This document shows, in pieces, positions 2,491 through 43,943 of a stretch of 53,936 nt of DNA. Position 1 is the stretch's first letter. Each line of letters opens with the position of its first letter. Source of the stretch: Patescibacteria group bacterium (GTDB lineage: Bacteria > Patescibacteriota > Patescibacteriia > GWA2-47-26); the NCBI GenBank assembly GCA_038064355.1, contig JBBTTG010000019.1, positions 1 to 53,936 of the forward strand, written 5' to 3'. Both the position numbers and the translations under genes were made by a program. The notes under the pieces were generated by a model, which saw nothing but the letters and a program-made list of their open reading frames with translations, was not told the origin of the DNA and did no database searches.

Positions 2491-2633
2491 TAGGATGCCA
2501 TCAAAAAATATTTTTAAAAACCATTATACATACAGAAAGAGTCCCCGCAAAAGAGATTCTTATCTGCGATACCCAGGAGAGAGCCGCGTGGTTGCACACA
2601 CAGTTCTAGTGTCTAACGAGAAATAACTAAAGT

Positions 2634-2754
2634 GAGACTGTAGAAAAACGCGATCTGCTTCGTTGAAATCTGCGGTACTCACTCGCCGCACCTCAAGTGC
2701 ACCTCGATTCGTTCCTCGATTCCGTCTCGCATCTCATCATTTTTTTACAGTCTC
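2634..2754. repeat. Family-D MITE-like element (121 bp), diverged copy
   Basis: Termini are GAGACTGTAGAAAAACGCGATCTGC ... CGCATCTCATCATTTTTTTACAGTCTC. It aligns with the copies at 8340-8460 and 19068-19188. Confidence 0.85.
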
Positions 2755-2788
2755 AAAATACTGTGAATTACGAACACCCCTTCTCTTG

Positions 2789-2835
2789 TGTCATCCCCGC
2801 GAAAGCGGGGATCGACAGGGGGGGGCGGGGAATGA
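2789..2835. repeat. Family-F palindromic element (GTCATCCCCGCGAAAGCGGGGAT type)
   Basis: TGTCATCCCCGCGAAAGCGGGGATCGAC...GCGGGGAATGA. Related copies lie at 26901-27000, 34281-34350, 40207-40267 and 42944-43004. Confidence 0.7.
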
Positions 2836-2929
2836 TAAACAGAGAGTTTCGTAATTCAAAGAAAATAGCATTTTCTGTGCAAGTTCAAGTCTTGTACTAT
2901 CAAGTCTTTGTGTGTTCGTGACTTGCCCA

Positions 2930-3033
2930 CATCGCCTTCCCCCTTTGAAAAAGGGGGATTGAGGGGGATTTTCTCCAACCTGTTGCATAAATCCCTCGGC
3001 CTTCGGCCACTCCCTTTTTCAAAGGGAGAGAAA
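2930..3033. repeat. Family-G element, inverted relative to the copy at 39788-39925
   Basis: CCCCCTTTGAAAAAGGGGGATTGAGGGGGATTTTCTCC...CCCTCGGCCTTCGGCCACTCCCTTTTTCAAAGGGAGAG is the reverse complement of the 39.8 kb copy. Confidence 0.8.
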
Positions 3034-3130
3034 AATCCGACTGCCCATTGCGCGGCAGTGTAAAAAAACCGCAAAACCGCAACTCTCCCCCCTGTGCATA
3101 CTGACAGAGTGAACGAGCGTGATATGATGA

Positions 3131-3307
3131 AAGCGTAAGGATTGCTTTACTCAAGGTAAAACCTTGGAAGAAGCCAAGGCGATGGCCAAAGACGCTATCG
3201 ATGCCCATTGTCAAAGTTTAATGAAAGACGGCGAATCTATCCCTGAAGAAAAAGTTTATGAAGGTGAGTTTGTTGGGCACATGAGTTTTGAATTTCAGTA
3301 TGCATGA
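3131..3307 (+). pseudogene. HicB-family antitoxin remnant (C-terminal part only)
   Basis: The frame reads CFTQGKTLEEAKAMAKDAIDAHCQSLMKDGESIPEEKVYEGEFVGHMSFEFQYA*. It is preceded by two stops and has no plausible N-terminus. It resembles the GCMTQGETFEQAQERVKDAIQGYIEVLREDGEEVP segment of the intact hicB at 52217. Confidence 0.5.
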
Positions 3308-3372
3308 AGCCAAGACTGCCAGCTTTAGCTCTAAGGTTTTTTCAATTTTTTATAGCTTTCAAAAATTCCGCT

Positions 3373-4314
3373 TCAGTGTGAGCGTTTAGTATCTATAATT
3401 GCCAACCGATTAAGACCTGCAAGGTCTTTTTTTATTTTGATTTTGCAGGAGGGGAAATAGTGGCGGGCGAGGGTTTGAATGTCGTCGGATTGGTGGGGGC
3501 AAATTTCAAAAATTAAGTAAGTAGCGTGTAGGGAGTAGCGTGTAGAAAATTCCTTGAGCTGTTTCAAGAGGGTGCGGTAGTAGGTGAGGCCGTCTGGGCC
3601 GCCGTCCAGGGCGAGGCGGGGTTCATAGTGGCGCACGTCAGGCGGGGATTGCCGCCATTCGGAAGTTGGAAGATAAGGGAGGTTGGCGGTGATAAATAGC
3701 GTGTAGGGAGTAGCGTGTAGGGAGTAGACACGCAGGAAAGGCTCAAGAAGGTTGATATACAGGAAGGTGATATTTTTTTCGACGCCATGGAGGCGGGCGT
3801 TTTTGCGGGCGACGGTGAGTGCGGAGCGGGAGGCGTCGGTGGCGAAAAATTCAATTCCCCTCACCTCCATCCTCTCCCCGGAGGGGAGAGGGAGGGGAGA
3901 GGGGGCGAGGAGTTTGGCAAGAGCAATAATAACACACCCGCTACCGGTGCCGATGTCGATGATAACAGTTGGTAGCTTGTAGCTGGTAGCGAGTAGGTTG
4001 AGGGATTCTTTCACCATCAGTTCCGTCTCGGGGCGGGGAATGAGGACGCGCTTGTCCACGCAAAAATCCAATCCGTAAAATTCTTTGTGGCCGGTGATGT
4101 AGGCCACCGGCTCGTGCTTGGCGCGCCGTTTGATCAGTTTGCCGTAGGTAGCCGACTGTGAGCGTTGGAGATTGTATTCAGGATGAGCAAACAGTGTCTC
4201 CTTCGTGATTTTGAGTGTATGCGCGAGCAGTATTTCCGCATCGAGCGAGGCGGATTTGATTTTCGCAGATTGAAGACGGCTAGTGCCCCAGAGGAGAGCC
4301 TCTCGCGAGGTCAT
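3373..4314 (-). CDS. prmC: Release-factor glutamine methyltransferase PrmC/HemK, carrying several repeat-derived segments
   Basis: SAM motif IDIGTGSGCV. Other motifs are PRPETE and NLPY (in the NPPY position). It sits directly downstream of prfA. At 313 aa it is about 35 aa longer than typical PrmC. Confidence 0.9.
   Translation of the reverse strand: MTSREALLWGTSRLQSAKIKSASLDAEILLAHTLKITKETLFAHPEYNLQRSQSATYGKLIKRRAKHEPVAYITGHKEFYGLDFCVDKRVLIPRPETELMVKESLNLLATSYKLPTVIIDIGTGSGCVIIALAKLLAPSPLPLPSGERMEVRGIEFFATDASRSALTVARKNARLHGVEKNITFLYINLLEPFLRVYSLHATPYTLFITANLPYLPTSEWRQSPPDVRHYEPRLALDGGPDGLTYYRTLLKQLKEFSTRYSLHATYLIFEICPHQSDDIQTLARHYFPSCKIKIKKDLAGLNRLAIIDTKRSH
3518..3545. repeat. Heptanucleotide NNNGTAG tract (4 units) inside prmC
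   Basis: TAAGTAG CGTGTAG GGAGTAG CGTGTAG, translated on the minus strand as RYSLHATY. Confidence 0.85.
3693..3727. repeat. Heptanucleotide NNNGTAG tract (5 units) inside prmC
   Basis: TAAATAG CGTGTAG GGAGTAG CGTGTAG GGAGTAG, translated as VYSLHATPYTLF. It ends four codons upstream of the NLPY motif. Confidence 0.85.
3857..3908. repeat. Family-B GC-rich palindrome inside prmC
   Basis: CCTCTCCCCGGAGGGGAGAGG core, translated as PSPLPLPSGERMEVRG. It is about 85 percent identical by eye to the eno copy. Confidence 0.85.
3969..3996. repeat. Heptanucleotide NNNGTAG tract (4 units) inside prmC
   Basis: TTGGTAG CTTGTAG CTGGTAG CGAGTAG, translated as LATSYKLP just before the SAM-binding motif. Confidence 0.8.
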
Positions 4315-4315
4315 A

Positions 4316-5383
4316 TTATTCCTCGTCCTCTATGTCAGTCTCGCCGCGTTGAAGCGAGGTGATGACATCGTTGATATCGCCATCAAGAATGCCAGGCAAG
4401 CCATGCCAGCTTTTCTTGATGCGGTGGTCCGTCAGGCGGTCCTGGGGGACGTTGTAGGTGCGGATTTTTTCCGAGCGCTCTCCCGTGCCGATCTGTGAAC
4501 GGCGCGCCTCGGACCGTTCGCGGTGGCGCTTTTCTTGTTCAAGCGCGTAGAGGCGCGAGCGCATGACCTGCATGGCCCGTACGCGGTTTTGCTGTTGGGA
4601 GCGTTCGTCTTGGCAGGAGACGACGAGCCCCGTGGGGATATGGGTGATGCGGATGGCGGAGTAGGTTGTATTGACCGATTGCCCGCCGTGCCCGCCGGCC
4701 GTGGATGTTTCGATTTTTAAATCTTTCGGATCCACCTTGAAATCCATTTCTTCCACTTCGGGGAGTACGGCAACGGTGGCAGTTGAGGTGTGCACGCGCC
4801 CCGCTTTTTCGGTTTCCGGGATGCGTTGGACGCGGTGCACGCCGCTTTCGTGTTTCAGCGCGCGATACGCGTTGCGGCCCTCAATGAGGAATACAACTTC
4901 TTTGAAACCGTCGATATCGGTGCGGTTGGAAGAGAGGAGCCGAGTCGACCATCCTTGGCGTTCGGCGAAACGGCTGTACATGCGAAAAAGATTGCCGGCA
5001 AAGAGCGCGGCCTCATCGCCTCCGGTGCCCGCGCGGATTTCCACAATGATATTCTTCTTATTCATCGGATCAGCCGGATGCAGGAGTTCGGCGAGTTCAG
5101 TTTGTAGTTTGTAGTTTGTAGTTTGTAGTGTTTTGATCTCCTCTTCGGCAAGGGAGCGCAATTCCGTATCTGTTGTTTCCCGGAGCGTTTTTTCTATATC
5201 CTCCACGACGCGGGTATTGGTATCTATCCGTTCCGCGAGATCGAGAATTTCTCTCAACTCGTCGTATTCCTTGGAAAGCGCGCGCAAACGCTCCGGATCC
5301 GCAAGGGTGTCCGGTTGGCTCATAAGCGTTTCAAGCTCTTGGGCGCGTTTTTGATTTTTTTGTATTTCCGGGAGGAAATTCAT
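4316..5383 (-). CDS. prfA: Peptide chain release factor 1
   Basis: GGQ motif ([11 protein letters not shown]), RF1-type PxT tripeptide (RIPETEK) and [11 protein letters not shown]. The start was chosen at MNFLPEIQ; the ORF-track start at 5407 is also possible. Confidence 0.93.
5101..5128. repeat. Perfect tandem heptamer (TTTGTAG)x4 inside prfA
   Basis: Four identical units, translated on the minus strand as [10 protein letters not shown]. Confidence 0.95.
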
Positions 5384-5443
5384 ACCAATAGAAAAAGCCA
5401 CAAACATTGTAACACGGCGAATGTTACTCTGTCTGTGGCTTTC

Positions 5444-5737: not shown

Positions 5738-5799
5738 ACTCAATAGTGAGAATACTGTAGCATGGGGGGTTGAAAATGGCAAGTGTACGCGGGGATTAA

Positions 5800-5834
5800 G
5801 GTATAGGGAGTAGGCGGTAGCGTGTAGACAGTAA
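5800..5834. repeat. Heptanucleotide NNNGTAG tract (5 units), intergenic
   Basis: GGTATAG GGAGTAG GCGGTAG CGTGTAG ACAGTAA, located between the terminator and rpmE. Confidence 0.8.
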
Positions 5835-5868
5835 AAAAACGGACCCGAGGGGAAACCCTAGGGTCCGT
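5833..5868 (-). terminator. Rho-independent terminator of the lipoprotein gene
   Basis: On the minus strand: ACGGACCC-TAGGGTTTCCCC-TCGGGTCCGT followed by TTTTTTT. Confidence 0.75.
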
Positions 5869-8015: not shown

Positions 8016-8339
8016 TCCCCGTCATGTTTTCGCGTTTCTCGCTCCGCTCTTGACAATTTTTCGTCCTCGTGATGATATATTGGTAAGAGTGTTCGTTCTG
8101 TCTGCATTGCATCTGGTTGGCGGCCTCTGAATATTCCCCATCCCCGCGACATCCCTCCCCTCCCCGCGTGGCGTGGTTCAGGAAGTTCATTGGTCGTCCA
8201 ACCGTTTTCTTGGCCGTATGGTCATAAGGTTTGTTTTTTCAACGAAAGCGTCGTAACCCCCCCCGCAAACGACATTCGCTGGAGAGACACTCACTGTGAC
8301 TATACTGGCCAACTTTTGTTTATAATCGAGTTGTAATTT

Positions 8340-8460
8340 GAGACCGTAGAAAAACGCGATCTGCTTTGTTGAAACCTGCGGTATTCGCTCACCGTACCTT
8401 TCAGTACGGCTCGCTCACTCCTCGGTTTCGCCTCGCATCTCATCGTTTTTCTACAGTCTC
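8340..8460. repeat. Family-D MITE-like element (121 bp)
   Basis: Identical by eye to 19068-19188. It has roughly 20 bp terminal inverted repeats AATTTGAGACCGTAGAAAAA / TTTTTCTACAGTCTCAA and a central hairpin CCGTAC-CTTTCA-GTACGG. Confidence 0.9.
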
Positions 8461-8941
8461 AATTTCGCGGTCATGATTTCGCAAAGTCCCTGTAGCCGGT
8501 TTTTTCGCTACCAGGATTTGCCCAAAATGTGGTGGACTGATACAACGATTTGACTTTCTCCGCCAGGTGTGGTTTACTGAGCTATAAGCTTCGTTCTGTT
8601 CGACAATCGATGAGGTTGGTGACCTGGCGGTTTCCGCAAAATCCCTCTCTCCTTTCTGTTCTACTCTGGCTCATGCTCTGGTTCATACATGGCAATTGCG
8701 GATCCGTCGGTCACCAACCTTTGCTCTTTTCGCTGGGCTGAAGCCTTGGAAAGAAAGATGAACCGAAAATTGATCCCCCCCTCGACATGCGGTTCGGTGA
8801 ATTCTTTCCCCAAGGTTTCGGCCTTTTTTATTTTTTGTCCAGAATACCCCATGGCTTGCCATGGGGATGAATGGAAACAAAAAATAAAACCCCGCCTTGG
8901 CGGGGTCATATTACCGCACCGCAAGCAGTGTGATAATTGAT

Positions 8942-8976
8942 TTTTCAAAAAAATCCCCCCGATCGGAATCGGGGGG
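8942..8976 (-). terminator. Rho-independent terminator downstream of the 9004-9549 gene
   Basis: On the minus strand: CCCCCCGAT-TCCG-ATCGGGGGG followed by ATTTTTTTG. Confidence 0.75.
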
Positions 8977-9003
8977 CTATAAGCCAGCGAAAGTTTTTGA
9001 CGG

Positions 9004-9549
9004 TTACCTGCGCCAGCGGGGCTTTGGGAGATCGCCGCCGAGGTCGCTCCACTGGGCGAAGACGTGAGCGACCGGCACCTCCAGGACGACATGGTCGATA
9101 CGGCTCGGCTGGTTGCCATGTTGGTAGCCCAAGGCGAGGTGGCCTCCCGGAAAGATTTTTTGCTCGAGCGTCGATGGACCTTCGGTCAGGGACATTGCCC
9201 AGCGAGTCGAATAGTTCAGGTGGCAACCGATGAGCAGGTTTGGCAGATTCGGCTGCGCCCACTCGGGCCAATTGCGGAGCTTTATATGCTTGATCCATGC
9301 GCCTTCCGCGTGGAAGTCGCTGAGTGTAACCTCGATTTCCCCGACTATGCTCGGTTGATTCGCCAAGCGGCCGTGTAGGATGATGCGCAGGATCCAGTAG
9401 GGCGTAAGCCATCCGGGCGCGAGATTGGGAGCGATGGAAAATTCATCCACCCGCCCCTCATGCGACAAATGCCGTTCGTCAAATTCGGGTATTTGTTTTC
9501 CTTGGCAGTAGGGGCAGTCTGGATGCGGGTGGGTTTGGGTGTTTCGCAT
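9004..9549 (-). CDS. Hypothetical protein (181 aa)
   Basis: The start was chosen at ATG 9549, with AGGAG 9 nt upstream (the ORF-track start at 9603 has no SD). The N-terminus carries a CPYC motif. No family was recognised. Confidence 0.55.
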   Translation of the reverse strand: MRNTQTHPHPDCPYCQGKQIPEFDERHLSHEGRVDEFSIAPNLAPGWLTPYWILRIILHGRLANQPSIVGEIEVTLSDFHAEGAWIKHIKLRNWPEWAQPNLPNLLIGCHLNYSTRWAMSLTEGPSTLEQKIFPGGHLALGYQHGNQPSRIDHVVLEVPVAHVFAQWSDLGGDLPKPRWRR

Positions 9550-9615
9550 GGCGCGCGTCTCCTGTGTGAAAAGGGCACTCTCACCGTAGCTTAAAAAAGG
9601 CATAAGGTCAAGCCA

Positions 9616-9662
9616 TTGACAAGGGGAGGGAAATTCTATATCATACTGTTCAAGTATGATAT
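9616..9662 (+). promoter_or_regulatory. suf operon promoter with an overlapping palindromic operator
   Basis: TTGACA (9616-9621), a 17 nt spacer, then TATCAT (9639-9644). A perfect 10 bp inverted repeat ATATCATACT-gttca-AGTATGATAT spans 9638-9662 and covers the -10 element. Confidence 0.65.
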
Positions 9663-9671
9663 CTTCGTTTT

Positions 9672-18295: not shown

Positions 18296-19057
18296 ATGAC
18301 TCAAATCCCGGAACTCGTGGATCTCTTGAAATCAGGTGCGCATTTTGGCCACCAGATTTCCAAATGGCACCCGAAGATGGCGGAGTATATTTTTACTTCG
18401 CGCAGCAGTATACACCTTATTAACCTTGAGATAACCCAGAAGAAGCTCGCGGAGGCGGCTGATTTTGCGCGTCAGCTTGGACGCGAGGGAAAAGTCTTGT
18501 TGTTTATTGGCACGAAGAAGCAGACACAGGAAATTATCAAAAAATACGCCAGTGAATGCGGCGCGCCCTATGTGTCCAATAAATGGCTTGGCGGGACTTT
18601 TACGAATTTCGCGGAAATCAGCAAGCTGATCCGGCGGTATATTGATCTCAGGGATCGAAGCGCTCGCGGACTTCTTTCCAAATACACCAAGAAGGAGCAG
18701 GTGGATTTTGCCAAGGAGATTGAAAAGACCGAGCATGCCATTGGCGGCATTACGGTGCTCACCAAACTTCCAGACGCGGTGTATATCGTTGATATCAAAC
18801 ATGAAAAGACGGCGCTCGTGGAGTCGCATCGCGTGCGTCTGCCGATTATCGCCATCTGCGATACCAATGTCGACCCGAGTCTTGTGGATTATATTATTCC
18901 CGCCAATGACGACGCGGTGAAATCCGTTGAGATGATTACGGCGGTGATTGCGGGTGCTTATCAGGAGGGGAAAGCCGAAGCAAAAGTGCAGGCCGCAAAA
19001 CCGAAAGAAGAGGTGAAGGAGGAAGTGAAGATGGAGGCGGTGGTGAGTAGCGTATAG
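18296..19057 (+). CDS. rpsB: 30S ribosomal protein S2
   Basis: LLKSGAHFGHQISKWHPKM, GGTFTNF, PDAVYIVD. The start was trimmed to MTQIPEL. The stop TAG lies inside a GTAG heptamer tract. Confidence 0.95.
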   Translation: MTQIPELVDLLKSGAHFGHQISKWHPKMAEYIFTSRSSIHLINLEITQKKLAEAADFARQLGREGKVLLFIGTKKQTQEIIKKYASECGAPYVSNKWLGGTFTNFAEISKLIRRYIDLRDRSARGLLSKYTKKEQVDFAKEIEKTEHAIGGITVLTKLPDAVYIVDIKHEKTALVESHRVRLPIIAICDTNVDPSLVDYIIPANDDAVKSVEMITAVIAGAYQEGKAEAKVQAAKPKEEVKEEVKMEAVVSSV

Positions 19058-19067
19058 TATGTAATTT

Positions 19068-19188
19068 GAGACCGTAGAAAAACGCGATCTGCTTTGTTGA
19101 AACCTGCGGTATTCGCTCACCGTACCTTTCAGTACGGCTCGCTCACTCCTCGGTTTCGCCTCGCATCTCATCGTTTTTCTACAGTCTC
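19068..19188. repeat. Family-D MITE-like element inserted between rpsB and tsf
   Basis: Identical by eye to 8340-8460. Confidence 0.9.
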
Positions 19189-19229
19189 AAATTGTTCCCC
19201 GCGAAATTTTTTTTGCAACATTTTTATAT

Positions 19230-22806: not shown

Positions 22807-22834
22807 ATTTGTCATTTGCCATTTGTAATTTTTA
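22807..22834. repeat. Heptanucleotide tract (ATTTNNN x4) just upstream of a start codon
   Basis: ATTTGTC ATTTGCC ATTTGTA ATTTTTA. Confidence 0.75.
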
Positions 22835-22840
22835 TCGCTT

Positions 22841-23029
22841 ATGTCCTACAAAATCGGCGACCGGGTGTCGAAAACCGGAAAATACCAATGCATCAACTGC
22901 GACACCGTTGAAACCTTCGAAGCGGAGGAGGAATTTCCGGACTGCGAGACGTGTTTTACGGGCGGCACACACACAGCCGACGATGAAATGGGCTGGGAGT
23001 TTGTGGCAGCCGATCCAACAATGGATTAG
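22841..23029 (+). CDS. Small zinc-ribbon protein (62 aa)
   Basis: The pairs CINC...CETC form a putative Zn ribbon. It abuts pgk. Confidence 0.55.
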   Translation: MSYKIGDRVSKTGKYQCINCDTVETFEAEEEFPDCETCFTGGTHTADDEMGWEFVAADPTMD

Positions 23030-24297: not shown

Positions 24298-24325
24298 TTT
24301 TGCATTTTTAACTTTTGACTTTTTA
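24298..24325. repeat. Heptanucleotide tract (YTTTTNA x4) forming the pgk-SIMPL spacer
   Basis: TTTTGCA TTTTTAA CTTTTGA CTTTTTA, then CCTAT and the ATG. Confidence 0.75.
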
Positions 24326-24330
24326 CCTAT

Positions 24331-25104
24331 ATGTTCTGGCCTACCTGGAGGGAAAATAAATTATTCACCGCGCTTCTTGGTCTTGTGGGCCTTGGGGTCG
24401 TGTTGCTCCTGGGGGTAAAGACCATGAATGGTTTCAAGGAGAATGCGTTTATCGGAAAACCCGAGATTCGCGACATGATTACGATTGAAGGAGAGGGGAA
24501 GGTCGCTGGCGTCCCGGAAATCGCGGTTATCGGTGTCGGGATTTCTACGGAGAATAAGGAGGTCGTGAAAGCGCAGACTGAAAATAATACAAAAATGACT
24601 ACGCTCATCGGCCGCGTCAAGGGATTCGGCGTGGACAGCAAGGATATTCAGACGACCAATTATTCCCTCTCTCCGCAGTATGAATGGCCGGATGGAAAGC
24701 GGGTGTTGCGCGGGTATCGGGTGACCCAAGAGGTGCAGGTAAAGATCAGGGATTTGGGAAAGATCGGCGCTATCCTTTCCTCGGTAGGCGAGTCGGGAGC
24801 CAATCAAGTATCGGGTGTTTCTTTCACTATCGACGATCCGGAAACGCTTCGCGAGCAGGCACGCGAGAAGGCGCTTGAGAATGCCAGAGCAAAAGCCAAA
24901 TCGGTGGCAGAGAAAGCGGGCGTGAAGCTCGGAAAGCTTGTGACTTTCAGCGAGTATTCCCCGAGCGGATCGACGTATTATAAAGGGTTTGATTCTTATG
25001 CAATGGGCCTCGGCGGTGCTACAGAAGCCGCGGCACCAGCACCGGTGGAGAGCGGAAGTTTGGATATCGTGGTCAATGTAAATGTCACATACGAAATCCT
25101 GTAG
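24331..25104 (+). CDS. SIMPL/DUF541 domain protein with an N-terminal TM anchor
   Basis: ITIEGEGKV...TTNYSLSPQYEW...GYRVTQEVQVKIRDL...SGSLDIVVNVNVTYEI. Confidence 0.8.
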   Translation: MFWPTWRENKLFTALLGLVGLGVVLLLGVKTMNGFKENAFIGKPEIRDMITIEGEGKVAGVPEIAVIGVGISTENKEVVKAQTENNTKMTTLIGRVKGFGVDSKDIQTTNYSLSPQYEWPDGKRVLRGYRVTQEVQVKIRDLGKIGAILSSVGESGANQVSGVSFTIDDPETLREQAREKALENARAKAKSVAEKAGVKLGKLVTFSEYSPSGSTYYKGFDSYAMGLGGATEAAAPAPVESGSLDIVVNVNVTYEIL

Positions 25105-25125
25105 TCAGTAGACGGTAGTCTGTAT
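25098..25125. repeat. Heptanucleotide NNNGTAG tract spanning the SIMPL stop and the eno start
   Basis: CCTGTAG TCAGTAG ACGGTAG TCTGTAT. The TAG at 25102-25104 is the SIMPL stop, and the eno ATG begins at 25124. Confidence 0.85.
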
Positions 25126-26425
25126 GCGTATTCAAAGTATTCATGCCTACGAAATATTGGACTCGCGCGGGAATCCGACCGTGCGGGTGAGGGTGCGCCT
25201 GAAAGATGGTTCCGAGGGAGTCGCCTCGGTGCCTTCGGGCGCCTCGACCGGCGTGCATGAAGCGCTCGAACTTCGCGATGGAGACAAAAAGCGCTATGGC
25301 GGCAAGGGGGTGCAAAAGGCGTGCCGATTTGTGAATAAAATCATGGCTCCAAGGATTGCCGGTATGGCGGTGGAGGATCAACGAGTCATAGATGGTTTGA
25401 TGTGCGAGCTCGATGGGACAAAGCACAAGTCGCATTTTGGAGCTAATGCTATTTTGGGTATATCGCTTGCCTGCGCGCACGCGGGTGCGGCATCGGCCAA
25501 GCTCCCGCTTTATCGCTACCTCCGCAAAATCTACTCTCTCCACGCTACTCCATACAGGTTGCCCCACCCAATGATGAACATCCTTAATGGCGGACGGCAC
25601 GCGGATTGGAGTTTGGATTTGCAGGAGTGCATGATCGTGCCCGGGCAGAAGAAGTTTTCCGATCGCCTGCGTTGCGGCGCGGAGGTTTTTCATGCGTTGT
25701 ATGATATCTTGAAGAAACGAGGGCTTACGGTCGGTGTGGGCGACGAAGGGGGATATGCGCCGCGTTTAAAAAGCAATGAAGAGGCTTTTCGTCTCATCGG
25801 CGAGGCGGTGCAAGCGGCGGGATATATGTATGGAAAACAAGTGAAGGTGGCGATTGATGCCGCGGCCTCGGAGTTCTATAACGGAAAAACAGGACGTTAT
25901 GAGATGAATGTGGATAAGAAAAAATTGAGCTCGGATGAGCTGGGAAAACTCTATAGACGATGGATGAAGCAGTATCCGCTGATTTCCCTTGAGGATCCAT
26001 TTGCCGAAGATGATTGGGACGCGTGGAAGAAGTTTACTCATCAACTTTCCTCACCCTTCCCTCTCCCCAGAGGGGAGAGGATTAAGGTGAGGGGGAAAGG
26101 CACCATGATCGTTGGAGATGATCTTTTCGTAACGAATGTTGAGCGTTTAAAGAAAGGGATAGAAATGGGAGTGGGGAATGCCATTCTTATCAAGGTCAAT
26201 CAGATAGGCACGCTCTCCGAGACCATGGATGCGATTGATCTGGCGCGAAAACATGATTACCGCGTGATCCTTTCTCACCGCTCGGGTGAGACCGCGGATA
26301 CGACGATCGCGGATTTGGCCGTGGCGGTGAATGCCGACTACATCAAGACCGGAAGCCTCTCGCGCAGCGAACGCGTGGAAAAATATAATCGATTGCTGGA
26401 GATTGAGTCGGAAGTGAGTTTGTGA
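25124..26425 (+). CDS. eno: Enolase, with two repeat-derived segments
   Basis: ILDSRGNPTV, SGASTG, PMMNILNGG, GDEGGYAP, VGDDLFVTN, IKVNQIGTLSET, SHRSGETAD. Confidence 0.96.
   Translation: MRIQSIHAYEILDSRGNPTVRVRVRLKDGSEGVASVPSGASTGVHEALELRDGDKKRYGGKGVQKACRFVNKIMAPRIAGMAVEDQRVIDGLMCELDGTKHKSHFGANAILGISLACAHAGAASAKLPLYRYLRKIYSLHATPYRLPHPMMNILNGGRHADWSLDLQECMIVPGQKKFSDRLRCGAEVFHALYDILKKRGLTVGVGDEGGYAPRLKSNEEAFRLIGEAVQAAGYMYGKQVKVAIDAAASEFYNGKTGRYEMNVDKKKLSSDELGKLYRRWMKQYPLISLEDPFAEDDWDAWKKFTHQLSSPFPLPRGERIKVRGKGTMIVGDDLFVTNVERLKKGIEMGVGNAILIKVNQIGTLSETMDAIDLARKHDYRVILSHRSGETADTTIADLAVAVNADYIKTGSLSRSERVEKYNRLLEIESEVSL
25531..25558. repeat. Heptanucleotide tract (CTACNNN orientation) inside eno
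   Basis: CTACTCT CTCCACG CTACTCC ATACAGG, translated as YSLHATPYR. prmC carries the same peptide. Confidence 0.85.
26048..26097. repeat. Family-B GC-rich palindrome inside eno
   Basis: CCTCACCC-TTC-CCTCTCCCC-AGA-GGGGAGAGG-ATTAA-GGTGAGGG, translated as SSPFPLPRGERIKVRG before VGDDLFVTN. Confidence 0.9.
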
Positions 26426-28753: not shown

Positions 28754-28823
28754 GTGCAAAGTGATCAATGCAAAGTGAAAAGTCAGGGGTGAAAAATGAA
28801 GACTATGGTATACTACATCTACT
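28754..28823. repeat. Intergenic spacer of exactly ten heptamers (RTGNNNN periodicity)
   Basis: GTGCAAA GTGATCA ATGCAAA GTGAAAA GTCAGGG GTGAAAA ATGAAGA CTATGGT ATACTAC ATCTACT, followed by the ATG. Confidence 0.7.
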
Positions 28824-34244: not shown

Positions 34245-34377
34245 GAGACTGTAGAAAAACTCTTAAAAATCACTTCCTTCTGTCATTCCCGCGAAAGCGG
34301 GAATCCAGAAACCACTTCAAACCTGGATCCCCGCTTTCGCGAGGATGACAGAAAGAGGTCAAGTGCGAAGTCCTATA
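34245..34377. repeat. Chimeric element: D-type left end, family-F core, E-type right end
   Basis: GAGACTGTAGAAAAA..., then TGTCATTCCCGCGAAAGCGGGAATCCAG...GAGGATGACA, then ...GGTCAAGTGCGAAGTCCTATA. Confidence 0.8.
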
Positions 34378-34424: not shown

Positions 34425-34829
34425 ATGACGGAAAATACGCCGCCGACCAGCCAGGAAATTTTGCCGACCATTCAGGATGTTCTTGAGGCCGTAAACGAGT
34501 TTGCCAGTCATGTAGACAAGCGGTTTTCGGATATAGACAAGCGGTTTTCGGATATAGACAAACAGTTTTCGGGTATAGACAAACAGTTTTCGGGTATTCG
34601 CGAAGAGATGGCGACAAAGAGTGATCTCAACCGTTTTAAGCTAGACTTGATTGATGTCATAGATGAGAAGAACGCCGATCTCAAGGCTGATCTTACTATC
34701 CTTATGAGAAAAGAAGATAAGAAGGTGGTGAGTTTGATTGATCTTTTGCGAAAAAAATCCGTCATTGATAATACAGAGGCGGCAAAGATTCTTGGTATGG
34801 ATCCGTTTCCGCAGGATGTGGTTATATAA
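34425..34829 (+). CDS. Small coiled-coil protein, paralog of 26470-26793
   Basis: EILPTIQDVLEAVNEFASHVDKRFSDIDKRFSDIDKQFSGIDKQFSG...MDPFPQ. Confidence 0.65.
   Translation: MTENTPPTSQEILPTIQDVLEAVNEFASHVDKRFSDIDKRFSDIDKQFSGIDKQFSGIREEMATKSDLNRFKLDLIDVIDEKNADLKADLTILMRKEDKKVVSLIDLLRKKSVIDNTEAAKILGMDPFPQDVVI
34512..34595. repeat. 21 bp tandem repeat x4 inside the coiled-coil gene
   Basis: GTAGACAAGCGGTTTTCGGAT / ATAGACAAGCGGTTTTCGGAT / ATAGACAAACAGTTTTCGGGT x2, encoding the heptad DKRFSDI / DKQFSGI. Confidence 0.95.
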
Positions 34830-43408: not shown

Positions 43409-43930
43409 ATGGCGAAAACAAAAGAGCAAAAAGAGGGCGCCTTTAGTGATCTCTTGGAGAGGCTTGAGCATATGAAGTCTGCCGTCATCGTGAGCTTTTC
43501 GGGCCTCAAAGTAAAAGACGCGCAGAAATTGCGCGAGAAGTCCTGGAAGAGCGGTGTCGAATACGCGGTGGTGAAGAAAACCCTGCTCGGGATCGCGCTC
43601 AAGAAAGCGGGTCTCGCGGAGGTCGATATTAAATCGTTCACAGGGAATGTGGCAGTGGCCTTTGGTCTCGAAGATGAGACGAGCGCCCCAAAATTGATTG
43701 CCGAATTCGCGAAGGAGAATGAAGCGATGAAGATACTCGGCGGGTTATTGGGAAAACAATATATCCCCGTCGCCGGCGTAAAATCCCTGGCGAGTCTTCC
43801 CGGAAAACAGGAGTTGCTTGGACAGTTGGTCGGCACCATTGCGGCGCCCATGTCCGGAATGCTCAATGTCCTTCAGGGAAATATTCGAGGGCTTGTACAG
43901 GTGCTTCATGCGATCAGTAAGAAATCCTAA
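43409..43930 (+). CDS. rplJ: 50S ribosomal protein L10
   Basis: [22 protein letters not shown]...YAVVKKTLL. The start was trimmed to MAKTKEQK. Confidence 0.92.
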
Positions 43931-43943
43931 TCCCTAATCCCTA
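43923..43943. repeat. Heptanucleotide tract (AATCCTA ATCCCTA ATCCCTA) spanning the rplJ stop
   Basis: Three units; the TAA at 43928-43930 is the rplJ stop. Confidence 0.75.

Follow-up and report, generated by a model that had tools for sequence, protein, structure and literature searches.

We analysed a stretch of 53,936 nucleotides (nt), hereafter the window, which comprises positions 1 to 53,936 of contig JBBTTG010000019.1 (assembly GCA_038064355.1) from a Patescibacteria group bacterium and in which tandem heptanucleotide tracts recur at gene junctions. The genes named in a first-pass annotation made from the letters alone are borne out by Pfam matches, which identify rpsB, tsf, gap, queA, pgk, a gene for a SIMPL protein, eno, gpmI, a gene for a PAP2 protein, rplJ and rplL, and in addition prfA, prmC, rpmE and a suf cluster. 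The best relatives of gpmI share 59-68% identity with it and come from metagenome-assembled genomes (MAGs) labelled Candidatus Uhrbacteria, Parcubacteria or Patescibacteria. The window set consists of 32 spacers, of which the short ones total ~2 kb; repeats were called with Tandem Repeats Finder (TRF) at a cut-off score of 30, and the number of rows in the window was compared to that in 100 dinucleotide-preserving shuffles. For comparison we used 80 related loci (L001-L080; 1.27 Mb), from which 530 short spacers were pooled for autocorrelation, and 100 kb of Escherichia coli K-12 as a control.

The spacer between gpmI and the PAP2 gene (28754-28823, + strand) had been described as ten heptamers, seven of which begin with RTG. 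It is indeed exactly 70 nt long, but only six of its units begin with RTG. The spacer reads GTGCAAA GTGATCA ATGCAAA GTGAAAA GTCAGGG GTGAAAA ATGAAGA CTATGGT ATACTAC ATCTACT, that is, about seven degenerate RTGMAAA-type units followed by three heptamers that reach the PAP2 ATG. At lag 7 the identity is 0.46, with a P of 0.0002 relative to shuffles at that lag and of 0.005 when any lag from 2 to 12 is allowed; TRF makes no call at score 30 and the strict local score has P = 0.11. The spacer is a degenerate array.

Four other tracts are clear, with lag-7 identities from 0.67 to 0.73. In the spacer between pgk and the SIMPL gene (24298-24325, + strand), TTTTGCA TTTTTAA CTTTTGA CTTTTTA is the complement type of the RTGMAAA family, with a lag-7 identity of 0.73 and a local score P of 0.015; the period-7 tract is plain, but the pattern assigned to it earlier, YTTTTNA x4, fits only three of the four units. 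The SIMPL-eno junction (25098-25125, + strand; lag-7 identity 0.67) reads CCTGTAG TCAGTAG ACGGTAG TCTGTAT, or (NNNGTAG)x3 plus TCTGTAT, with a GTAG chain at 25101 and a triple stop at 25102; as had been proposed, the SIMPL stop (TAG, 25102-25104) lies within the tract and the eno ATG (25124) overlaps the last unit. The rplJ-rplL junction (43923-43943, + strand) carries (CCCTAAT)x2.6, called by TRF at 43926-43943 as CCTAATC x2.6 with 100% matches (local lag-7 score P = 0.000), and the rplJ stop, TAA at 43928-43930, falls inside the called array, again as had been noted. Similarly, TRF confirms the ATTTNNN x4 tract ahead of the ATG at 22841: it lies 5' of a 62-amino acid (aa) open reading frame (ORF) that precedes pgk (22807-22834, + strand), reads ATTTGTC ATTTGCC ATTTGTA ATTTTTA, or (ATTTGNC)x4, and is called over 22807-22831 as 3.6 copies with a score of 36 (local score P = 0.000). 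The rpsB stop region (19044-19064, + strand; TGAGTAG CGTATAG TATGTAA) differs in strength: the rpsB stop does lie inside it and it holds three stops in three frames, with a triple stop at 19048, but as a periodic tract it falls short of significance (P = 0.05 for lag 7 and 0.43 when any lag is allowed). A further array lies upstream of rpmE (5797-5838, minus strand), where the + strand reads TAAGGTA TAGGGAG TAGGCGG TAGCGTG TAGACAG TAAAAAA, so that the gene sense is of the CTAC type; it contains a GTAG chain at 5810 and triple stops at 5797-5818 on the + strand.

Period-7 repeats are in excess in the window as a whole. TRF reports eight period-7 rows, whereas the shuffles average 0.96 and never exceed 4, and the period-14 rows are double units. 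The local lag-7 score reaches P ≤0.05 in 10 of the 32 spacers, compared to 1-5 spacers for each other lag from 4 to 13, and GTAG pairs 7 nt apart occur 16 times, while the mean at other distances is 0.2. The pooled lag-7 autocorrelation is only modest (z = 2.0 for the 2 kb of short spacers and 3.2 for all intergenic DNA), so most spacers carry no tract. The proposal that tracts make up whole spacers holds for about five of the 32.

The same periodicity is found far beyond the window. Among the TRF rows of the 80 related loci, period 7 is the commonest with 156, ahead of period 8 (75 rows) and period 10 (59 rows). Merged period-7 arrays occur at 0.64 per kb of intergenic DNA but at 0.062 per kb of coding DNA, an approximately 10-fold bias, and the intergenic densities of period-8 and period-10 arrays are 0.19 and 0.11 per kb. 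Autocorrelation of the pooled spacers peaks at lag 7 (z = 10.4), with harmonics at lags 14 and 21 (z = 5.7 and 3.7, respectively), and the lag-7 signal extends from ~10 nt before the stop codon to ~10 nt before the start codon. Period-7 arrays are absent from 32 of the 80 loci. In the E. coli control there are three short period-7 rows, all in coding sequence. The arrays thus have at least three head-to-tail copies, exceed both chance and the neighbouring periods and are biased to intergenic DNA, as heptanucleotide simple-sequence repeats (SSRs) are, and the seven-nucleotide periodicity first noticed at gene boundaries reflects genuine tandem arrays, similar to the short tandemly repeated repetitive (STRR) sequences of cyanobacteria. 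If the tracts were a chance or compositional pattern in A/T-rich spacers that had been picked out by eye, we would expect weak signals such as those of the 70-nt spacer and the rpsB tract, and the z of 2.0 for the window's short spacers agrees with that expectation. However, the TRF excess over shuffles, the number of spacers significant at lag 7, the GTAG spacing, and the array densities and harmonic autocorrelation in the relatives rule this out, and the E. coli control shows no such excess; we consider a chance origin scarcely credible.

Not all arrays lie between genes; some are found inside prfA, prmC and eno. In prfA, which encodes release factor 1 (RF1), a perfect array at 5099-5129 (minus strand) reads (CTACAAA)x4.4 in the sense direction and (AGTTTGT)x4.4 on the + strand (TRF 100% matches, score 62). 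It encodes a 10-residue peptide; the Pfam PCRF domain is continuous across it and an alignment of 16 RF1 proteins has no gap there, so the length of the protein is unchanged relative to its homologues. Less perfect orthologous arrays are found in L087 and L088. The corresponding site reads CTGCAAA CTACCAA CTACCGA CTGCAAA in a relative with 86% amino-acid identity and CTACAAA CTACTCA CTACAAA CTACAAG in a relative with 70%. The window differs from the first of these at five positions, four of them synonymous, as would fit a repeat that is being homogenised or is decaying rather than selection on the protein.

In prmC there are three arrays, each of them called by TRF, all on the minus strand and given here in the sense direction. 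The one at 3970-3996 (CTACTCG CTACCAG CTACAAG CTACCAA) encodes LLATSYKLPT, and its ortholog in L087 is a perfect 14-mer x2.4; that at 3697-3727, (CTACTCC CTACACG)x2.2, encodes YSLHATPY (TRF period 14, 100% matches, score 62); and that at 3520-3545 (CTACACG CTACTCC CTACACG CTACTTA) encodes YSLHATY. A decayed array in eno (25531-25558, + strand; CTACTCT CTCCACG CTACTCC ATACAGG) also encodes YSLHATPY, within a loop of 15 aa. This loop is a heptamer array of the CTAC or GTTACAG type in L077, L057, L046, L066 and L009 (GTTACAG in L009) and a non-repeat of identical length in ~24 other loci; its length is 15 aa in 29 of 30 sequences, with or without an array. The ancestral pattern Y-x-L-P...Y-x-L-P, with a spacing of seven residues, gives natural CTAC seeds in a 7-nt phase. 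For the CTAC/GTAG family, the sense strand of the gene always carries the CTAC form, because three GTAG units would put TAG in all three frames. The in-gene arrays do not resemble phase-variation tracts, in which changes in the copy number of a non-triplet unit turn a gene, usually a surface or restriction gene, on and off. The genes concerned here (prfA, prmC and eno) are essential housekeeping genes, the arrays are in frame and leave the length unaltered, and no frameshifted variants were seen.

Several other features of these genes were noted. The catalytic motif of the PrmC/HemK family is NPPY, but in prmC of the window (3373-4314) it reads NLPY, in the context ITANLPYL; inserts derived from repeats break up the methyltransferase domain of this protein, and its matches to Pfam methyltransferase models are weak. 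A palindromic element of ~46 nt, CCCCTC..TCCCTCTCCCC-loop-GGGGAGAGGAT.GAGGTGAGGGG, is inserted in frame both in prmC (3856-3902, minus strand) and in eno (26049-26094), where it encodes PLPLPSGERMEVRG and PFPLPRGERIKVRG. Identity between the copies is 85%, and the folding energy of either one is about -38 kcal/mol. The prmC site of this element is occupied by (AAATTGG)x4 in the 86%-identical relative L087. The element is reminiscent of the Rickettsia palindromic elements, which are repeats that enter ORFs in frame. An ORF at 34425-34829 contains a 21-nt tandem repeat in four copies (34513-34597) with no visible internal 7-nt structure.

The repeat units are highly diverse and turn over at orthologous sites. 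There are 95 canonical units among 151 arrays, and the families are specific to sub-lineages: GATACTC in L035, L052, L058 and L063; AATTACG in L043, L055 and L065; and GTAGCTG/CTACCAG in L020, L040, L060 and L077, with closely related GTAGC units in prmC of the window. Downstream of gpmI, 9 of 42 orthologous sites have a tract, and no two of these share their units. Many relatives have no spacer here, as gpmI directly adjoins the following gene or overlaps it, and the array-bearing spacers therefore look like gains. Unit number between congeneric species differs by one (4 versus 5).

It had been proposed that the tracts supply stop codons. The SIMPL, rplJ and rpsB stops do lie within tracts, and in the window stop-stop-stop triples with a period of 7 occur 16 times on the + strand, compared to 1-3 times at spacings of 4, 5, 8, 10, 11 and 13. 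Thus, the arrays might have been selected as three-frame barriers, in which TAG, TAA or TGA units end any frame at the ends of genes and insulate neighbours, and the 5-8-fold excess of period-7 triples over other non-triplet spacings is what such a barrier would produce. However, only 2 of the 16 triples are at the ends of + strand genes. The other 14 lie either antisense to genes of the minus strand or upstream of such genes, and on this ground we reject a three-frame stop function. In the relatives, stop triplets are present in 64% of the arrays nearer a stop codon compared to 42% of those nearer a start codon, a difference that is not significant (P = 0.12); 17 arrays start at a stop codon, only slightly more than the 12.2 expected under uniform placement. 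Moreover, many abundant units have no stop (for example, GATACTC, AAATTCG and ATTACGA), and the orientation rule for arrays in genes follows trivially from stop avoidance. We therefore think it very improbable that stop barriers account for the arrays. All six GTAG chains in the window are on the + strand, which might be taken for a leading-strand bias, but no replication-level cause is needed, because TAG is banned in the sense strand of minus-strand genes.

The first-pass annotation had also remarked that the core genes have no Shine-Dalgarno (SD) motif and that the tracts sit in its place. The first observation is correct, since the named junctions carry no SD-like 4-mer, but the genome is almost without SD whether a tract is present or not: SD-like 4-mers precede 9 of 48 genes, and the background rate is 13.6%. 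The second observation is not supported. In the relatives, 17 arrays end between -8 and +10 of a start codon, compared to 17.4 expected under uniform placement, so there is no enrichment of arrays immediately upstream of starts; this test is approximate, because gene starts were taken from a simple ORF caller. Since the genome is nearly SD-free throughout, and the arrays are not enriched at start codons, we reject the idea that the tracts replace SD. A reading of GATACT and TATACT units as -10-like elements of leaderless promoters was also considered: TANNNT peaks are only modest and a promoter scan of the 70-nt spacer was empty.

Start sites have some features of their own. Among 392 starts in the window and L001-L080 with an upstream spacer of at least 25 nt, the base before the ATG is T in 69%, and TANNNT hexamers most often have their first base at -15 or -12. 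The maximum for SD-like 4-mers is at -12 to -9, and each position from -13 to -8 has such a 4-mer in 11-29 of these starts. These features hint at short-leader or leaderless transcripts and at a TATG start context in the clade, with the starts again taken from the simple ORF caller.

The arrays of the relatives differ from those of the window in their potential to form hairpins. In the relatives, many array-bearing spacers contain an array plus its reverse complement and fold into hairpins of -30 to -65 kcal/mol. Whole spacers of this kind, with minimum free energies (MFE) from -41 to -65 kcal/mol, are L012 3215-3335, L065 705-805, L043 3025-3150, L035 18825-18955, L052 19960-20070 and L047 7215-7375, and the rplJ-rplL spacer of L035, L052 and L058 is a heptamer-array hairpin. 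In most of the examples inspected visually, the first arm is the one that is richer in purines or bears the stops, and the order is the same when read from the other strand. In the window there is no array hairpin, and ordinary terminator-like hairpins follow tsf and rplL.

If the arrays served RNA structure, inverted pairs might act as terminators, RNase III sites or mRNA stabilisers, while single arrays might keep the start region unstructured for SD-independent initiation. The long array/reverse-complement hairpins of the relatives favour the first of these roles. The second is favoured by the five named junctions of the window, which fold no better than shuffles (z from +0.07 to +1.7), with an MFE of 0 for pgk-SIMPL and for rplJ-rplL and of -7.5 kcal/mol for the gpmI-PAP2 spacer (z = +1.7), which has no structure. 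The two sub-hypotheses, however, predict opposite structures, and neither is sustained by the comparisons. Strongly structured spacers make up 44% of the array-bearing and 31% of the array-free spacers, which is a small difference. The sense strand is the more stable in 6 hairpin spacers and the antisense strand in 9, whereas an RNA element on the transcribed strand predicts the opposite bias; selection for sense-strand hairpins is thus not supported. Most of the hairpins have no T-run after them, and the window uses classical terminators after tsf and rplL. Start regions at array junctions fold no differently from those at the remaining junctions (P = 0.26), and an unstructured-leader role in the window is likewise unsupported. 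We find neither a positional nor a structural signature common to the arrays, and we consider a role in RNA structure highly unlikely.

The window also contains other structured elements. A hairpin in the rpmE-prfA spacer (5394-5442; MFE -26.6 kcal/mol in a 50-nt window, z = -8.4) is followed by a T-run, is kept in L087 and is probably the rpmE terminator; it overlaps the first ATG of the longest prfA ORF, and the annotated start (MNFLP) is 8 codons downstream. An element of ~131 nt with 22-nt terminal inverted repeats (AATTTGAGACCGTAGAAAAACG ... CGTTTTTCTACAGTCTCAAATT) is present in three copies (19063-19193, 8335-8465 and 2633-2755), two of which differ at one position, while the third has diverged in the central hairpin. 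It may be either an element similar to a miniature inverted-repeat transposable element or a structured RNA; its sole Rfam match is a sub-threshold and meaningless one to a plant microRNA precursor, and at gathering thresholds Rfam has no match anywhere in the window. Two unusually long stretches, 2491-3372 (0.9 kb) and 8016-9671 (1.7 kb), contain no ORF of convincing codon usage in an otherwise tightly packed genome, and each contains one copy of the 131-nt element. Finally, an inverted repeat at 34272-34359 has 37-nt arms with GTCATTCCCGCGAAAGCGGGAATCC-like sequence, and similar motifs are also found in spacers of several relatives, for example downstream of gpmI in L060, L008 and L017.

We think it fairly probable that the tracts are heptanucleotide SSRs of the STRR kind, which are lineage-wide in Uhrbacteria-type Patescibacteria and a by-product of mutation in a 7-nt register. 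The arrays would arise, and be kept homogeneous, by slipped-strand mispairing or templated correction in this register during replication, and the number 7 may be tied to the footprint of the polymerase, as proposed in literature that PMC4692102 cites. They would persist where a period that is not a multiple of three does no harm, which is mostly in short spacers between co-directional genes, and these spacers they may fill or even create. Within genes, their survival would be limited to loops that tolerate them, to blocks of 21 nt (7 codons) and to the orientation that is free of stops. Three copies of a stop-bearing unit would place a stop in all three frames; stop-bearing arrays would therefore be restricted to positions at or beyond the stop codon, or antisense to genes, and it is because of this restriction that the ends of genes seem to be supplied by a tract. 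Some arrays may have been co-opted secondarily, as they persist across species and pair into hairpins in the relatives.

A number of observations weigh against mutation alone. There is a 4.4-fold enrichment of the CTAC/GTAG core in the units of the different genomes, and variation between units clusters on 1-3 unit positions around an invariant core of 4-5 nt, such as GTAG/CTAC or GATAC (combined Z = 5.0). Such clustered variation would fit a binding motif, although duplication of 14-nt double units could give the same pattern. Some arrays stay in place in four congeneric species whose nucleotide identity is 78-86%, with the same unit and an almost unaltered sequence; examples are (GATACTC)4-5 immediately 5' of gpmI and the hairpin between rplJ and rplL, and in L035 the array remains although the rest of the spacer is unalignable. 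In the prfA array of the 70%-identical relative, 7 of 8 codons at conserved residues are identical compared to 43% in the rest of the gene (P = 0.016, as one of several tests). The matched inverted arrays of the relatives, with hairpins from -40 to -65 kcal/mol, are not a product of simple slippage. No slippage or copy-number polymorphism was seen in two independent assemblies (GCA_964365935.1 and Logan ERR3858126), which are 100% identical to the window and thus uninformative with respect to copy number.

Much of this evidence would also be expected if the arrays were cis-regulatory platforms, in which cores of 4-5 nt (GTAG/CTAC or GATAC) repeated every 7 nt bind a lineage-specific S1-like, cold-shock-protein-like, CsrA-like or oligomeric factor that tunes translation or mRNA fate in a genome without SD. 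The pattern of a core plus variable positions, the frequency of the CTAC/GTAG core across genomes, the retention in four species of the gpmI-proximal and rplJ-rplL arrays, and the existence of matched inverted pairs all point in this direction, as do the location of arrays at junctions of glycolytic and ribosomal-protein genes and the near absence of SD motifs; a comparable role has been proposed for TAACTGA repeats (PMC4679880). On the other side, there is no enrichment next to starts, the units are very diverse, and orthologous spacers both acquire and lose arrays. Either orientation of a given core can be found, and the cores are also present within coding sequence, where synonymous constraint is not consistent (codon identity at conserved residues is significant in one of nine array-bearing comparisons), and no candidate binding protein was identified. 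We therefore consider a cis-regulatory role unlikely. A more elaborate version, to which we give still less credence, is a clade-specific system in which a dedicated protein, acting as an oligomer, would recognise CUAC/GUAG and GAUAC cores at 7-nt intervals in mRNA or DNA. This protein would be one that organises translation initiation or coupling and transcript processing without SD; inverted pairs would then be processing or insulating hairpins and the arrays within genes would be internal control sites.

The first-pass annotation knew of no equivalent of these tracts in this type of genome, nor of such tracts acting as gene junctions. Heptamer repeats that adjoin start codons in SD-poor intergenic regions, including those of ribosomal-protein operons, have in fact been described in Beggiatoaceae, Cyanobacteria and Bacteroidetes (PMC4679880), and PMC4692102, which cites a 2007 survey, reports an excess of heptamer SSRs in bacterial intergenic DNA together with a hypothesis of polymerase slippage. 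On the other hand, the papers retrieved by full-text search of the searchable library contain no description of such repeats in CPR (Candidate Phyla Radiation), Patescibacteria, Parcubacteria or Uhrbacteria. None of the known units occurs in tandem in the window or the 80 loci, whether TAACTGA, STRR1-3 (CCCCAGT, TTGGTCA and CAACAGT), GGGAATC or GGGGAYT; tandem TTTTGAT is absent from the window and has one match in the 80 loci.

The closest parallels share some but not all properties of the arrays. The STRR of heterocystous cyanobacteria (Calothrix, Nostoc and Anabaena) are likewise tandem 7-nt units, with several families per genome, dispersed mostly in intergenic DNA and with no established function; here, however, the host is an Uhrbacteria-like member of the Patescibacteria with a genome of ~1 Mb, the arrays are short (3-8 units), the STRR1-3 units are absent and some arrays lie in frame in essential genes. 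The TAACTGA repeats of marine Beggiatoaceae, some Cyanobacteria and Bacteroidetes (MacGregor 2015, PMC4679880) also have 2-6 heptamer copies, lie in intergenic regions that include ribosomal-protein operons and in which SD is rare, and contain stops that limit the orientation of the unit relative to ORFs, but there one dominant unit lies a few nt upstream of starts, while here there are dozens of units and no enrichment at starts. The GGGAATC and GGGGAYT repeats of Xanthomonas and Nostoc (PMC4692102) resemble ours in a heptamer-specific intergenic excess among long SSRs, in occasional inverted pairs, in length and sequence that vary between related species at the same intergenic site, and in the slippage hypothesis for the 7-nt period; they differ in being G-rich and able to form G-quadruplexes, whereas our units are mostly A/T/C-rich, with cores of GTAG/CTAC, GATAC or A/T runs, and none is a G-run unit. 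The tandem repeats of Borgs (PMC9879509) are similar in that nucleotide repeats are tolerated in coding sequence and create new peptide segments (here, YSLHATPY and the 10-residue peptide of prfA), but units within Borg ORFs are multiples of 3 and make disordered regions, whereas here 21-nt blocks occupy enzyme loops of unchanged length. Compared to REP/REPIN (repetitive extragenic palindrome) elements, which are linked to RAYT (REP-associated tyrosine transposase) genes, a GTAG core is common to both, but ours are tandem heptamers of variable unit rather than copies of one palindrome, and no Y1 transposase was found among 40 window ORFs scanned with Pfam. Relative to the known heptamer repeats, two traits are less familiar, namely that 21-nt blocks lie in frame within essential genes and that inverted arrays make up hairpins.

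Genomes of the CPR/Patescibacteria are ~1 Mb and are thought to hold very little non-functional DNA; a heptamer process that fills or creates spacers is therefore notable for the dynamics of these genomes. The same process would also rewrite loops of essential enzymes (RF1, PrmC and enolase) in 21-nt blocks and build long hairpins from inverted arrays. On present evidence, the arrays reveal no new mechanism of translation initiation or termination. In this clade they do affect MAG assembly and the calling of gene starts and gene stops. With these arrays, the '7-nt preference' of long bacterial SSRs, itself unexplained, is extended to a very distant phylum, which provides comparative material for deciding whether this preference originates in the replisome or in a selected function.

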